From positions 1 through 64,000 of IMG/VR virus record IMGVR_UViG_3300036832_001149: a DNA stretch of 64,000 nt. One strand, 5' to 3'. This DNA comes from a virus. The translations under genes and the position numbers were made by a program. This document shows, in pieces, positions 24,164 to 38,407 of this stretch. The notes beneath the pieces were generated by a model that searched no databases, was not told the DNA's origin, and saw nothing but the letters and a program-made list of their open reading frames with translations. Each line of letters begins with the position of its first letter. Position 1 is the first letter of the stretch.

Positions 24164-24256
24164 ACTATAACACACTATGATTTCTGTTGTCAAGGTGAAA
24201 CGTGGAAAGCCACCTGAAATGGGTGGCTCGCTCTGCTGTTGACTGTACCACACTAT
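24164..24256 (-). promoter_or_regulatory. Two tandem promoters: TTGACA-N18-TATAGT and ATAGTGTGG-TACAGT
   Basis: Consensus -35/-10 at 24193-24164; second motif copy at 24256-24242. Confidence 0.75.
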
Positions 24257-24392: not shown

Positions 24393-24560
24393 TTACTCCT
24401 CCTCCAGTACGGCCACCACCTGGTCCAGCTTGGCATCCACCTCGTCCAGCTTGGAGACCAGCGTGGAGATCATCCGGGACATCTCCTGGATAACGGTGCC
24501 GAGCCGGTCGGCCACAGCGTTGGCCACCTCGTCGTTGTGCTGATCGTCAGCCATTCTCAT
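24393..24560 (-). CDS. Small coiled-coil protein (55 aa, not in ORF track)
   Basis: MRMADDQHNDEVANAVADRLGTVIQEMSRMISTLVSKLDEVDAKLDQVVAVLEEE; GAAGGAG RBS. Confidence 0.5.
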   Translation of the reverse strand: MRMADDQHNDEVANAVADRLGTVIQEMSRMISTLVSKLDEVDAKLDQVVAVLEEE

Positions 24561-24781
24561 GCTCCTTCGGTTACTTCGGCGGATTCCAGGGCGTGGAGTA
24601 TCTCGTACAGCGCGGAACAGATGCCCTCAATGGTGGCATCCACGTCCAGACCGGACATGGAGACGACCAGGGATACCTCATCCTGGTCCGGAGCCAACTC
24701 CACCAACAGGTAGGGGGTATCCCCGATCAGCCGGTAGTGCTCATAGGCAGTGGGTTCGTCTCGGAAAGCCACGTCCTCCAT
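24557..24781 (-). CDS. Hypothetical protein
   Basis: Coupled ORF. Confidence 0.45.
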   Translation of the reverse strand: MEDVAFRDEPTAYEHYRLIGDTPYLLVELAPDQDEVSLVVSMSGLDVDATIEGICSALYEILHALESAEVTEGA

Positions 24782-25398
24782 ACCGGAATCCTCTTCTCCT
24801 CGGCGGTCCGGATACAGTCTGCGGTACCCCGACCACCGGAGAAGGCCACCAGTATTCCGGGAGCGAAGTGCTCCAGCATCAGCCGGTTCCGCAGCGGTCC
24901 GGCCCGATTCCCGTAGAGGTTCCAGTCCGGTAGGTAGACCCGGACCGGACAGCCCGTCTTCACCGCCCAGCGGGCCGCGAGGGTATCGGCCCCGGCTGCC
25001 CCACCGTGGGCCAGCACCGAGATATCCAGCGAGTTCAGGGTTCGGGCCAGGTACCGGTCATCGGCGAAGTTCCGGCCTCCGGTCACCGCCACCCGTAATC
25101 CGGTCTCCCGGGGCGGGAACTGTTCCGGGTCGATGACCTTCCGCTGAGCGGTGGCCGCACATCCGGCATGCTGCAGAGCCCACCAGTTCCTCTCGGGTCG
25201 GATCAGCAGTTGACCGGCGTAGATCCGCATCCCGCACAGCCGACAGCGCTTGCCGATCAGCGACCCGGTCGCCCGGACCAACCGGACGGTGGAGGACTCA
25301 TCCTCACCCTCGGAGGGGATGAGCGGTGCTTCACCGTGGGGTGCGGCCGGACGATCGGAGTCCACTGGGGAAGCATAGGGCCCCGACCGGGTTGCCAT
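24727..25398 (-). CDS. YspA/SLOG-family (DUF2493-like) protein with N-terminal CxxC region
   Basis: RVAVTGGRNF...HGGAAGAD...W..YG.RAGPLRN..ML...VAF.GGRGT..C. Confidence 0.85.
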   Translation of the reverse strand: MATRSGPYASPVDSDRPAAPHGEAPLIPSEGEDESSTVRLVRATGSLIGKRCRLCGMRIYAGQLLIRPERNWWALQHAGCAATAQRKVIDPEQFPPRETGLRVAVTGGRNFADDRYLARTLNSLDISVLAHGGAAGADTLAARWAVKTGCPVRVYLPDWNLYGNRAGPLRNRLMLEHFAPGILVAFSGGRGTADCIRTAEEKRIPVWRTWLSETNPLPMSTTG

Positions 25399-25444
25399 CC
25401 GTATGTCGGGGCCCTGCTGCGGTGCTACGCATTACCAGTTATAC

Positions 25445-25858
25445 CCGTTTGTGGAACAACCACACCAGGAAACCCTTGTCGGGGAAAGCAGTCCCCACCC
25501 GGCTGCCGGGGGCCGCAGGCGGCCCCAAAGACACAAGACCCCCAGCGCATCCTCACCAGAAAAAATCATTCCTGGCTGCATCTTCTCCGCAACGGTCACC
25601 GGCTGTGAGGGAATCCCTCGGCTTGCCCGCCTACGTCAGCGGGTTCCGGCATGGCCGTACAACCTCCACTGACGAGGGTTTGACCTCGGGGGTAAGCCGG
25701 GCTCCAGTAGTAACTTCGCAAGCTGAGGGATCGTCGCTCCGACGTAGTACTCTGGGCTTGCGTTCTAGACAATCGCCACCCTACAACCGACCTCGGTCGG
25801 GGACCAGGGCGCGTAACGCCCGATTTGGGGATTGCACCCCGGTCGGGCGTTACTTTTT
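25445..25858 (+). ncRNA. Candidate highly structured ncRNA (~400 nt)
   Basis: 14-bp long-range helix 25613-25626/25718-25731, many hairpins, ends in a terminator; G-U pairs favour the + strand. Confidence 0.55.
25813..25858 (+). terminator. Intrinsic terminator
   Basis: GTAACGCCCGA...TCGGGCGTTAC then TTTTT. Confidence 0.8.
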
Positions 25859-25862
25859 CCCC

Positions 25863-26054
25863 ATGACGATCACCGAGCAGGCGGCGGCCCTGGCGGCCCG
25901 GTTGCCGCCCGACACGCGGGACGCGCTGGATGACTTGTATGACGAGGACCAGCGAGCAGAATGGCAGCGACGGTACTTCCTGTCCTGCGCTCGTCGCCGC
26001 CGCACAATGATCTTCTTGGCCCTCCGGGAGGCCGGGTACAGCACGTCCCCCTGA
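25863..26054 (+). CDS. Hypothetical protein (63 aa)
   Basis: MTITEQAAALAARL...; protein-like 3' end of ORF 25326..26054. Confidence 0.45.
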   Translation: MTITEQAAALAARLPPDTRDALDDLYDEDQRAEWQRRYFLSCARRRRTMIFLALREAGYSTSP

Positions 26055-26144
26055 GTCCGGTGAACCTTCACCCGGTTCTCCATTGGAGTCTGTCCTACTC
26101 TGGTGCATCTTGATCTAATCGTAATGTCCGAGTAGAACTGTGCC

Positions 26145-27368
26145 ATGCGGTTGCCATCGCCTGAAGCCCTCCTGCTCTCCTCCGTCCTGAACACCTCAGA
26201 CCTCTCCGAAGCCCTGCGCCGGGGTGTGTGCCCCGAGCACTTCACCGGCTACCGGGCCGAATGGGAGTTCCTGACCCGGTACAGCCGGGACTACCACGAC
26301 ACCCCGTCCCTGGACGTGGTGCTGTCGGTCTATCCGGAGTTCCCCTACCGCACCGGGGCGACCGAGGTGGCCTTCTTCGCCGACCAGGTCATCGAGCGGC
26401 ACAACCACCGCTCGGTCAAGGCGATGCTGCTGGCCTCGGCCGACCACCTGGCCTCGGGCGACCTGGGCCAGGCCGTGTCCGCGATGCGCTCGGTCAGCGT
26501 CACCGGGACATCCCTGCCGCCGACCGACGCCGTCCGCAGCTACTGCGTGGCCGACGAACTGGACGCCGAGCGGCAGAACGCGGTCCCCTATCCCTGGGCC
26601 ACCCTCCAGTCCCACACCGGGGGGATGTGGCCCGGGGATTTCGCTGTCTTCGCCGCCCGCACCACGGTGGGCAAGTCCTGGGGGCTGATCTACGCCGCCG
26701 TCAACGCGGTGATGCTCGGGCACACGGTGCGCTACTACAGCCTGGAGATGCCGACCGCCCAGATCGTGGCCCGGGTCCATGCGGTGCTGGGCAACCTGCT
26801 CGGCTTCCGCCTGTCCCACACCGCGCTGCACCACCGCAGCGTCGACCGCATCCTGTACAAGCGGCTGCTGGCCGAGATGGAGAAGAAGGTCCCGGGCGTG
26901 TTCGAGGTGATCGACACCAGTTCCGGGCGGATCACCCCGGCCTCGGTCGCCAACTGCACCGGGGTGGACCTGGTGCTGGTCGACCACATCGGCCTGATGA
27001 GCCAGCCCGACGGCCGCCGGGCCATCGAGGACTGGCGGGTGATGGCCACGGTGTCCAACATGCTCAAGGAGGTGGCCATCTCCTCGGCCGTGCCGGTCCT
27101 GGTCGCCTCCCAGATCAACCGGGAGGGCGGTCGGGGCAAGGCACTGCCGGGGATAGCCGATCTGGCCCAGAGCGACGCGATCGGGCAGGACGCCGACGTG
27201 CTGGTGACGATGCGCCGGATGGCCGGGCCGGTGATGAAGTACGCCCTGCCCAAGAACCGGCACGGGCTGAACGAGGTGAACTTCTATGGCCGGTTCGACC
27301 CGGACTACGGTCGGCTGTCCGAGATCACCCGGGAGACGGCGGAGGACCTGTGCGATGAGACCACGTGA
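26145..27368 (+). CDS. dnaB: DnaB-like replicative helicase
   Basis: AARTTVGKSW (Walker A variant), YSLEM, VLVDHIGLM, SQINRE, SDAIGQDAD, KNRHG. Confidence 0.92.
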   Translation: MRLPSPEALLLSSVLNTSDLSEALRRGVCPEHFTGYRAEWEFLTRYSRDYHDTPSLDVVLSVYPEFPYRTGATEVAFFADQVIERHNHRSVKAMLLASADHLASGDLGQAVSAMRSVSVTGTSLPPTDAVRSYCVADELDAERQNAVPYPWATLQSHTGGMWPGDFAVFAARTTVGKSWGLIYAAVNAVMLGHTVRYYSLEMPTAQIVARVHAVLGNLLGFRLSHTALHHRSVDRILYKRLLAEMEKKVPGVFEVIDTSSGRITPASVANCTGVDLVLVDHIGLMSQPDGRRAIEDWRVMATVSNMLKEVAISSAVPVLVASQINREGGRGKALPGIADLAQSDAIGQDADVLVTMRRMAGPVMKYALPKNRHGLNEVNFYGRFDPDYGRLSEITRETAEDLCDETT

Positions 27369-27768: not shown

Positions 27769-27940
27769 TCCGACGCAGACCTGCCAGATATGCGGCCGGG
27801 TCGTCACCGTCACCCCGGACGGTCGGGGCTTTCCGCCGGACATCGCCAAGCGGAAGCTGGCCAAGCTCTGCCGGGAGGACGGGCACAAGTCCGACCCGAG
27901 ATACCGGGCCGGTCTGTACCTCGTTCCCAAACAACCGTGA
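27761..27940 (+). CDS. Small hypothetical protein
   Basis: MTDPTQTCQICG; coupled to primase. Confidence 0.5.
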   Translation: MTDPTQTCQICGRVVTVTPDGRGFPPDIAKRKLAKLCREDGHKSDPRYRAGLYLVPKQP

Positions 27941-28758
27941 TCACGCTGACCCAGGCCCTGGCCAACGGCACCGGGACCGAGCGCAAGTTCTCCTGTCCGG
28001 TGCACCACGACACCAATCCATCGGCGTCGGTCAACGTGGTCAAGGGCAAGTGGTTCTGCTACGTCTGTCACGCCCACGGCACCCTGGACGGCGCGGTCTA
28101 CGACGATCTGGACGCCTACGCCATCCTGGACACCATCACCGCGATGCTCGACGAGCCCGAGAGCGAGTACCACTCGGAGGGGTGGCTGGACCAGTTCGAC
28201 GCCGGACGGCCGTGCGAGTACTGGCTGGCCCGCTTCGAGCCGGAGACGGTGGCCCACTTCCGGCTGGGCTATGACGCGGTCAAGGACGCGGCGACCTACC
28301 CGCTGCGCTCCCCGGCCGGGAACCTGATCGGGGTGGTCCGGCGCGACCTGGTCGGAACCTCGACCAAGTACCGCTACCCGTACCGGACCCGGACCACCGA
28401 CCTGTTGTTCAACTACGGCTTCGACCAGGTCGAGCAGGTGCTGCTGACCGAGGGCGCGACCGACGCCATGGCCGCCTGGGAGGCGGGCTACACGCCGGAG
28501 AACGGCAGCCTGGCGGTGGCCTGCTTCTCCAACCGGCTCTCGGCCCATCAGACGTGGCTGCTGAACCGGATCAGCCCGGAACGGATCGTGGTCTGCTTCG
28601 ACGACGACGAGGCCGGACGGGTCGGAGTCGCGCAGGTCCAACAGGCGCTGGCCGGAGAATACCCTGTGTTTCGCGCGGTATTCGGTGGGGCCAAGGACCT
28701 GGCCGAACTGTCCCCCGACCTCCGCAGGAAGAGCGTCCGGCAGGCTATTGCACTCTGA
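27937..28758 (+). CDS. DNA primase (Zn finger plus TOPRIM)
   Basis: CPVHHDTNPS...WFCYVC; LTEGATDAM; CFDDDEAG; KDLAE. Confidence 0.9.
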   Translation: MITLTQALANGTGTERKFSCPVHHDTNPSASVNVVKGKWFCYVCHAHGTLDGAVYDDLDAYAILDTITAMLDEPESEYHSEGWLDQFDAGRPCEYWLARFEPETVAHFRLGYDAVKDAATYPLRSPAGNLIGVVRRDLVGTSTKYRYPYRTRTTDLLFNYGFDQVEQVLLTEGATDAMAAWEAGYTPENGSLAVACFSNRLSAHQTWLLNRISPERIVVCFDDDEAGRVGVAQVQQALAGEYPVFRAVFGGAKDLAELSPDLRRKSVRQAIAL

Positions 28759-37484: not shown

Positions 37485-37640
37485 ATGCTCATCCTCGGTG
37501 TGATCCTGCTGGTCCTCGGCTTCGTGCTCGGTATCTCGATCCTGTGGATCATCGGGATACTGCTGGTCATCGTCGGTGCGGTGCTCTGGCTGCTGGGCGG
37601 CACCGGCCGCCCGGTCGGCGGTCGCCGCTATTGGTATTGA
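37485..37640 (+). CDS. DUF6131-family small membrane protein (51 aa, not in ORF track)
   Basis: MLILGVILLVLGFVLGISILWIIGILLVIVGAVLWLLGGTGRPVGGRRYWY. Confidence 0.8.
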   Translation: MLILGVILLVLGFVLGISILWIIGILLVIVGAVLWLLGGTGRPVGGRRYWY

Positions 37641-37661
37641 CGCTGCGCCGCCTGCAGCACA

Positions 37662-37704
37662 AAGGACCCACTCCGGATCAAATGGAGTGGGTCCTCTGCT
37701 TTTC
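37662..37704 (+). terminator. Probable terminator
   Basis: AGGACCCACTCC/GGAGTGGGTCCT stem. Confidence 0.65.
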
Positions 37705-37792
37705 AGGACTCAGGATGGCACGGGGGGGCAACAACCCTGAGCACATTCCAGGGTACGTCCGTTTGGGACCGGGAGGCTTTATCCTCACCCGT

Positions 37793-38407
37793 GTGGAATC
37801 TGTGGAATCCGGTGACGAGCAGCAGAGCAACCGGGTCCTCCGATTGGTGCTGCGCCGCCCGGATGCGGAGGCCCAGGTCGAGGAGTTGGCCGCCATCCCG
37901 GACGGCTTCGACAAGATCTTCACCAAGCCCTACTACGCCCACCAGTTGCGGCTGGCCGGGCACGACTGGGTCTGGATCGCGGCCAAGATCGGCTACAAGA
38001 CCCCGTACACGGCCGAGGCGGCGGTGCGCCGCTGGCTGACCAAGAAGGTCGAGGGCAAGCACCTGCCCAACACCCGGGCGATGTTGCAAGCCGAGGCGGT
38101 CAAGCTCGACCTGGACCGGTTGGACCGGCTGATGGCCGCCTACTGGGACGAGGCGATCGGCGGTGACCTGGACTCGGCCAAGTACGTGCTCCAGGTGATC
38201 GCCCAACGGGCCAAGCATCTCGCGCCGGATAACGCTGGCGGGGTCGCGGCCGTCACCGCCCAGTTCAACACCCTGGTCGTGGGCGGGTCGGAGACGGAGT
38301 ATGTCGGGGCCCTGCTGCGGGCCCGGGATTCCCTGGGCCCGGCCCACCGGTCGACCGAGCCGGATGACGAGCCGCGCGTGGTGGACTTGGAACCGGTGAA
38401 GGAGTGA
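37793..38407 (+). CDS. Terminase small subunit / HTH protein (start uncertain)
   Basis: LRLAG..W..IAAKIGY...LDRLDRLMAAYW..A..GD..SA..VL.VI..RAK pattern; upstream of terL. Confidence 0.7.
   Translation: MESVESGDEQQSNRVLRLVLRRPDAEAQVEELAAIPDGFDKIFTKPYYAHQLRLAGHDWVWIAAKIGYKTPYTAEAAVRRWLTKKVEGKHLPNTRAMLQAEAVKLDLDRLDRLMAAYWDEAIGGDLDSAKYVLQVIAQRAKHLAPDNAGGVAAVTAQFNTLVVGGSETEYVGALLRARDSLGPAHRSTEPDDEPRVVDLEPVKE

Follow-up and report, generated by a model that had tools for sequence, protein, structure and literature searches.

A candidate divergent control region at an inversion junction ahead of the replication genes of an uncultured soil phage

Gene layout at the strand switch

The DNA analysed here, referred to as the window, is a stretch of 64,000 nucleotides that corresponds to bases 1-64000 of a 75,534-bp IMG/VR virus record with 66% GC, rated 94% complete by CheckV. 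Identical or near-identical contigs carrying all or parts of this stretch are found in three soil metagenome DNA runs, and the runs listed as containing the sequence include no RNA run. A blastn search against 50,697 phage records returned no match to it, and the best helicase identity among deposited phages was at most 30%, to Gordonia and Brevibacterium phages. The phage is an uncultured soil phage that is poorly related to known ones. Its host is presumably actinobacterial, judging by GC content and by distant helicase matches to Gordonia and Brevibacterium phages only.

The locus of interest is a spacer at 25399-25862, flanked on one side by a SLOG/YspA gene that points leftward and on the other by a rightward block composed of a 63-aa gene, a DnaB-like replicative helicase, and a primase. 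This arrangement bears out the strand switch before dnaB reported in an earlier note on the same DNA. The SLOG/YspA-family gene (24727..25398, − strand) matches Pfam PF10686 at 2e-16 and phrog_289. Its start is uncertain, since an ATG at 25398 lies in the loop of a hairpin described below (hairpin A) and an in-frame GTG is found at 25365. Leftward from the junction, the order is SLOG, a 74-aa gene (24557..24781, − strand), a 55-aa gene, and then the early operon. On the opposite side, the helicase (26145..27368, + strand) is assigned by PF03796 at 8e-26 and phrog_19 at 7e-52, and the primase is encoded at 27790-28758 on the same strand.

Coding potential and a conserved 63-aa gene

Genes of this phage typically display 80-100% GC at third codon positions. 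From 25399 to about 25840, GC3 remains flat at 0.5-0.7 in all phases, whereas the flanking genes show the codon signal. A dnaB-type phase signal returns from about 25840 and extends to 26054. An open reading frame at 25326..26054 runs across much of this region, and comparison with 1.84 billion representative proteins yielded 10 matches, each of 48-85 aa and each confined to residues 180-241. No relatives of its first 179 codons were recovered in the same search. The small relatives align from their N-termini and share the motif RLPxxVxDALDDLY...W..RY..C.RRR.TM. Because homologues match the frame only from the ATG at 25863, the non-coding stretch is placed at 25399-25862. The earlier note had considered the overlapping frames non-coding; this holds for the first 179 codons, with their flat GC3 and lack of relatives, whereas the last 63 codons constitute a real, conserved gene.

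The 63-aa gene (25863..26054, + strand; GC3 0.8) is 49% identical to the reading frame directly before the helicase in a related phage, L004. It begins 5 nt past position 25858, where the earlier note had ended a candidate structured RNA. The gene has no Shine-Dalgarno sequence, and TACTTT (25851-56) sits 6 nt ahead of its ATG. Neither Pfam nor PHROG contains a family for these proteins, whose extended motif continues as ..TM..LAL..AGYP. The product may act as a partner of the helicase or as a small protein that binds nucleic acid. The alignment of the small proteins was too variable to serve as a query in contig searches.

A terminator and a related hairpin bracket the spacer

The right-hand end of the spacer carries an intrinsic terminator on the + strand (25813..25858). 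It is defined by an 11-12-bp outer stem (25813-23 with 25843-53), an inner GGGG/CCCC hairpin, and a T5 tract at 25854-58. It combines a GC-rich stem with a U5 tract and, at a ΔG of −30.9, ranks with the strongest terminators of the genome, in agreement with the strong terminator that had been proposed. On the − strand, no U tract follows the hairpin. Two strong + strand terminators were found in total; of these, only the one at 25813-25858 coincides with a gene boundary and is not preceded by a + strand gene. The other terminator-like hairpin (37645-37703, ΔG −29.8, T4) lies inside the 5′ part of the gene at 37544-38407. On these sequence features, some + strand transcript probably ends at 25858.

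At the SLOG end of the spacer, hairpin A (25376..25416) consists of a 12-bp stem, with one G-U pair on the + strand, and a 17-nt loop. Its ΔG is −30.0 on the + strand and −27.8 on the − strand. Compared with the reverse complement of the terminator hairpin, 23 of 29 positions are identical, loops included. Its counterpart before SLOG in L004 (1789-1826) has the same GCAGCA...CTATG flanks around a different stem sequence. A viral-contig search with the hairpin consensus CCCGACCGGGKTGCMATCC gave three matches, none of which carried the hairpin.

A separate observation concerns the right arm of hairpin A, where an exact 22-nt direct repeat, GTATGTCGGGGCCCTGCTGCGG, occurs at 25401-25422 and again at 38299-38320, inside the gene at 37544-38407 (phrog_645, labelled RNase E). 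The mRNA of that gene would thereby have 22 nt in perfect complementarity to a − strand SLOG leader. By a rough estimate that was not computed with a tool, such a repeat would be expected by chance about 3e-4 times.

Related phages and an inverted SLOG module

Relatives of the helicase were sought in broader collections. A large protein collection contained helicases at 56-75% identity, among them P0002, P0003, and P0004 at 70-75%. Scans of viral, metagenome, and genome contig collections with a helicase profile identified L004 as the closest locus (58% DnaB identity), a complete 80-kb genome with terminal repeats. L085, a 3.2-kb contig, has a DnaB of 57% identity, and other loci are more distant. 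A search with the SLOG protein found no viral contig.

When the spacer was compared with 139 fetched loci by blastn, nhmmer, and tblastx, only the 63-aa gene and an element preceding dnaB in L004 gave matches. A single-sequence covariance model (R1) of the domain around a 14-bp helix in the spacer had no match at E<1 in 24 related loci plus the whole L004 and L003 records, with L088, L091, and L095 left out of the search. In the related loci, of which the closest shares 58% DnaB identity, the structured RNA proposed earlier therefore has no nucleotide, translated, or covariance-model counterpart. The soil-run contigs are identical or near-identical and thus supply no variants for covariation.

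L004 does provide a comparison of gene order. There, an early promoter on the − strand (about 1255-1275) is followed by about 560 nt of non-coding DNA, SLOG, a 72-aa ORF, a 58-aa ORF, and DnaB, with SLOG, both small ORFs, and DnaB all on one strand. The SLOG protein of the window is 38% identical to that of L004, and its 74-aa neighbour matches the 72-aa ORF by blastp (35% identity, E 2e-11). In the window, both genes lie opposite to the dnaB strand. Since their homologues occupy the dnaB strand in L004, the two phages carry the SLOG/74-aa module, together with its 5′ hairpin, in opposite orientations. The inverted spans are 24557-25416 in the window and 1789-2700 in L004, and the two helicases are 58% identical. 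No flanking long inverted repeats and no nearby recombinase were seen at the module. As long flanking inverted repeats are missing, nothing suggests an active invertase switch, and an invertible segment was dismissed on that ground.

The two loci also differ in what lies around the module. In L004, the GC hairpin at 1789-1826 sits 16 nt before the SLOG start, and a − strand terminator (1708-1745) is found only about 45 nt beyond it. In the window, 400 nt separate hairpin A from the terminator. No such spacer precedes the small pre-dnaB gene in L004, and the corresponding L004 spacer (1280-1841) is not unusually structured, with z about −1 on both strands. On this sequence comparison, the central 400 nt is lineage-specific material placed between two elements of a shared arrangement. 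Any direction assigned to the inversion, and any reading of the spacer as an insertion, would be drawn from one relative. L085 presents at least 600 nt upstream of dnaB (1-618) with no ORF showing a codon signal, and with long G runs (GGGGGGTAGGGGGG, GGGGGGGGG, and GGGGGGG). No small gene stands ahead of dnaB in that contig.

Promoter candidates on both sides of the terminator

A promoter-like element, TTGATC-17-TAGAAC (26110..26138, + strand), ends 6 nt before the dnaB ATG, as in a leaderless design. The same place is occupied by TTGCGT-17-TAGAAA in L004 and by TTGCGA-17-TAGAAC in L085. In a three-way alignment of the window, L004, and L085, the TTG, TAA, and GAGTAGAA columns are invariant, and nhmmer also aligns the L004 sequence. 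The conserved non-coding block ahead of dnaB in the three phages (26040-26144 in the window, 2846-3000 in L004, and 500-618 in L085) reads TCCATTGGA..TCTG followed by TTGnnn-17-(GAG)TAGAA[CA], 6-7 nt before the start codon. This element probably serves as a leaderless promoter whose −10 box, unusually, ends in C or A.

Within the spacer, a pattern scan of the region 25744..25787 returned two overlapping and divergent candidates. One is directed rightward (+ strand), TTGCGT (25758-63)-18-TACAAC (25782-87), and the other leftward (− strand), TTGTCT (25772-67)-17-TACTAC (25749-44). Together they surround the only TCTAGA of the genome (25764-69). The pattern TTGNNN-17/18-TA[CG][AT]AC occurs at five genome sites compared with 1.0 ± 1.1 in shuffles, and three of the five fall in 25744-26138; having been partly chosen after these sites had been seen, it is weak evidence and only a lead. 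None of the candidate −10 boxes TACAAC, TACTAC, and TAGAAC ends in the customary T, and two of them were selected only once they had been seen. Promoters, start sites, and termination in the spacer are given here as predictions.

The phage-specific early promoter motif AGTGTGGTAnAnT, often preceded by ATAG, has nine strong sites in the genome, all on the − strand (9628, 18948, 21789, 23746, 24164, 24242, 44863, 45131, and 45412). Those nearest to the spacer are 24164 and 24242, and the early promoter of L004 carries the same motif. No early-type motif was found in 25380-26160.

The rightward candidate raises the question of an attenuator, in which a leader starting near 25794 would run into a regulated ("switchable") terminator placed before the 63-aa gene and dnaB. 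The geometry fits this proposal: 26 nt separate the candidate promoter from the terminator stem downstream, the ATG that follows 5 nt after the terminator belongs to a gene that has no Shine-Dalgarno sequence, and the 63-aa gene needs a promoter after the inversion. Set against this are the terminator stem itself, which forms with a pair probability of 0.995-0.998 in every one of five sequence contexts, and the lack in those contexts of any antiterminator pairing that would compete with it. With terminator pairs at 0.995 or above everywhere, no alternative RNA fold can switch the terminator, although a protein acting on it could. Moreover, the leader matches no riboswitch or leader family and contains no leader peptide, and dnaB has its own conserved promoter. 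Overall, we regard attenuation as improbable.

Local hairpins rather than one folded RNA

The earlier note had interpreted the spacer as a single structured RNA of about 400 nt on the + strand, held together by long-range helices and possibly by a pseudoknot. Every pairing that it quoted is present in the sequence, some within 1 nt of re-placed coordinates. The longest is a 14-bp helix formed by ATCCCTCGGCTTGC (25613-25626) and GCAAGCTGAGGGAT (25718-25731), which encloses 91 nt (25613..25731). Its single G-U pair on the + strand becomes a C-A mismatch on the − strand. The remaining pairings are CGTCAG/CTGACG (25634-39/25669-74), CCTCAC/GTGAGG (25551-56/25605-10), GGGGA/TCCCC (25481-85/25492-96), GGGGCCG/CGGCCCC (25509-15/25520-26), and CCGAC/GTCGG (25787-91/25796-800).

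Such helices are not evenly distributed. Helices of 12 bp or more, ungapped and closing within 160 nt, number 19 in the genome, compared with 9.7 ± 3.0 in shuffles. Three of these 19 fall in 25376-25853, where about 0.06 would be expected, so their clustering in this interval exceeds chance. Two of the three are local hairpins, namely hairpin A and the terminator. The third, the 14-bp helix, is matched but not exceeded in length within this genome-wide set; shuffled genomes average 0.87 such helices.

Boltzmann ensembles assign most of the pairing to local elements. Between hairpin A and the terminator, the lineage-specific non-coding spacer (25417..25812) holds hairpins at 25450-64, 25481-96, 25509-26, 25634-74, 25717-62, and 25787-800, and it also holds two mutually exclusive longer folds. 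The hairpins at 25450-64, 25481-96, 25509-26, and 25787-800, like the terminator, are robust (P 0.86-0.995). The hairpin at 25717..25762 on the + strand pairs CGCAAGCU with GGCUUGCG, AGGG with CUCU, and CGUCG with CGACG, and reaches a pair probability of 0.97-0.99 in the 414-nt context, with a ΔG of −24.2 on the + strand and −18.6 on the − strand. The 14-bp helix, by comparison, has a pair probability of about 0.001, and at most 0.003, in three contexts of 299 to 442 nt. It remains unpopulated because the hairpin at 25717-25762 takes its 3′ arm; the 5′ arm can pair alternatively with 25690-99, in a helix whose left side is 25619-28. Forcing the helix costs 6-8 kcal/mol in the longer contexts, and it belongs to the minimum-energy fold only in the isolated piece 25605-25740 (−62.1 kcal/mol). 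CCTCAC/GTGAGG is equally rare: of the two contexts that include both of its arms, neither gives it a probability above 0.003. CGTCAG and CTGACG form the base of one nested hairpin (P 0.85). As they pair with each other in a nested stem, no pseudoknot is implied, and that part of the proposal falls away.

Folding energies were compared with dinucleotide shuffles. The interval 25445-25858 has a z of −3.09 on the + strand and −2.62 on the − strand. With the terminator removed (25445-25808), the values drop to −1.60, with 6 of 100 shuffles as good, and −0.37. Judged by the refuting condition given in the earlier note, the 400-nt body does not clearly outdo shuffled sequence. Flanking coding sequence goes down to z −2.7 in 200-nt windows. 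Beyond the terminator, the sole and modest stand-out is 25605-25775 on the + strand (z −2.81; 1 of 200 shuffles). The orientation proposed earlier is in part retained, in that the + strand gives the 3′ half a somewhat better fold and is also favoured by the G-U pair of the 14-bp helix, but the gain is modest. With its long-range helices outcompeted and little structure left after removal of the terminator, the single RNA of about 400 nt is not sustained.

A genuine + strand structured non-coding RNA in a broader sense, of about 250-400 nt, ending at the terminator, specific to this lineage, and acting on host or phage expression, can still be put forward. It would account for a non-coding stretch that leads into a strong + strand terminator although no gene on that strand precedes it, for the better + strand fold of the 3′ half with the z of 25605-25775, and for the enrichment in long helices, and it would have precedents in the long non-coding RNAs at operon starts known in L5, D29, and StarStuff (PMC5712189). 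Yet all nine early-type promoter sites lie elsewhere and on the other strand, the energy without the terminator is unremarkable, and the enclosing helices are unpopulated. The lack of any Rfam match or homologue in related records, and the mere 45 nt or so between the corresponding hairpin and terminator in L004, weigh against it as well. Taken together, this makes such an RNA rather unlikely. A more specific version envisages a lineage-specific + strand RNA of about 100-400 nt that ends at 25813-25858, with a central domain switching between the 14-bp helix, which would close a four-way junction, and the hairpin at 25717-25762, and that would act in the hand-over from early to replication functions; we consider this version unlikely.

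The strand comparison also bears on the possibility that most of the stretch is a long 5′ UTR of a leftward SLOG mRNA. Transcription would start at a − strand promoter near 25744-25772, and hairpin A would control SLOG translation, the start codon lying in or just after the hairpin. The early promoters at 24164 and 24242 lie downstream of SLOG and the next two genes, which hence need a promoter on their right, for which TTGTCT-17-TACTAC and a TATAAC at 25443-25438 are − strand candidates. Hairpin A is also conserved in the SLOG sense in L004. Conversely, the − strand z without the terminator is negligible, the + strand is favoured both by the hairpin energies and by the G-U pair of the 14-bp helix, and the SLOG leader of L004 is at most about 100 nt. 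If TATAAC were the promoter, the leader would span only about 35 nt and the spacer would be left unexplained. A long SLOG leader of this kind is doubtful.

No known RNA family and no hallmarks of an origin

The earlier note had not recognised the element as tmRNA, RNase P, SRP, or an intron, and database searches concur. Rfam 15, whose families also include riboswitches and GOLLD/ROOL, gave no match at gathering thresholds in the whole window, and ARAGORN reported no tRNA or tmRNA in it. With permissive filters over 25200-26200, the best Rfam scores were 19.6 bits against a threshold of 60 and 16.1 bits against 38, which is noise. For a riboswitch-like or leader sensing domain upstream of the terminator, there was likewise no Rfam match and no conservation in related loci.

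An origin-associated role had been suggested too, and the spacer could be or contain the phage replication origin, with the hairpins acting as DNA structures or protein-binding sites. The position next to DnaB and primase, the long non-coding stretches near dnaB in the window, L004, and L085, and the concentration here of long inverted repeats (3 of the 19 longest genome-wide) are compatible with this idea. The usual hallmarks are nevertheless missing. In none of the three spacers (window, L004, and L085) does an iteron-like repeat family rise above shuffles, and every match to a DnaA box has at least two mismatches. As for an AT-rich unwinding element, the maximum within 25399-25860 is 55% AT in 40 nt, while 15 other genome sites reach 60-70%. 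GC skew is uninformative on the origin, and the three spacers have no sequence in common. An origin at this site is therefore very improbable.

A proposed divergent control region at the inversion junction

The most likely identity of the stretch is an ordinary region of promoters and a terminator. More specifically, we assign a probability of about 0.5 to the interpretation of 25399-25862 as a lineage-specific divergent control region at the inversion junction. Inversion of the SLOG/74-aa module relative to L004 would have deprived the 63-aa gene of its preceding operon, and two related hairpins would enclose a spacer of about 400 nt that is specific to this lineage. One of them, hairpin A, belongs to the SLOG 5′ end and is kept in L004. 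The terminator would stop rightward transcripts that arise in or to the left of the spacer, and the replication genes, driven by promoters of their own, would be insulated or attenuated by it. Conservation across three phages backs the promoter-like element ahead of dnaB, and the other promoters are predictions. Nothing requires the other hairpins, all of them local, to belong to a single RNA. The most that may be made is a short RNA or leader on the + strand, about 65-100 nt long, running from the TTGCGT-18-TACAAC candidate to the terminator.

Two features sit uneasily with a control region of this kind. First, 400 nt is long for promoters alone. Second, the fold of 25605-25775 on the + strand and the concentration of the longest helices stand out, so that part of the spacer may function as RNA. 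Across its forms, long or short, a discrete + strand RNA is a minority prospect.

Comparison with known systems and implications

Divergent promoter and operator regions of phages resemble the locus in several respects, including the strand switch, the candidate back-to-back promoters, the 5′ hairpins on both flanking transcripts, and the lineage-specific sequence. At about 455 nt, the present region is unusually long for this class, and neither a repeated operator motif nor an adjacent repressor gene was identified. The terminator, in turn, is comparable to the insulator-type intrinsic terminators of phage operon boundaries, as a GC-rich stem-loop followed at once by U5, on one strand only, and located directly upstream of a gene block that appears to be promoted separately. 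It differs from them in that no gene is annotated upstream on the same strand, and in having a nested inner hairpin. In addition, a hairpin found 400 nt away, where the divergent gene begins, is a near-copy (23/29) of its stem-loop in inverted orientation.

A third comparison involves the cluster A mycobacteriophages L5, D29, and StarStuff, in which a non-coding leader RNA from Pleft has been documented by RNA-seq and Northern blot (PMC5712189). These RNAs start at a mapped strong promoter and have no canonical terminator (PMC5712189). The similarity lies in a stretch of several hundred nucleotides, poorly conserved in sequence and with no credible ORFs, that heads a block of non-structural genes in an actinobacteriophage. 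Here, by contrast, the spacer is a candidate that possesses a canonical terminator and has no early-type promoter. Membership in this group finds no backing either in the early motif, which is absent from 25380-26160, or in blastn matches among the 50,697 phage records.

If a discrete RNA were confirmed, it would add one more phage non-coding RNA, of interest mainly since the RNAs of cluster A mycobacteriophages are abundant but unexplained. If the ordinary interpretation is correct, the value of the locus lies in annotation, as it would define the boundary between early and replication modules in an uncultured soil actinophage. It would also add a conserved promoter of the leaderless type before dnaB, define the gene family, 63 aa in this phage, that accompanies this helicase, and record the inversion of a SLOG module between related phages.
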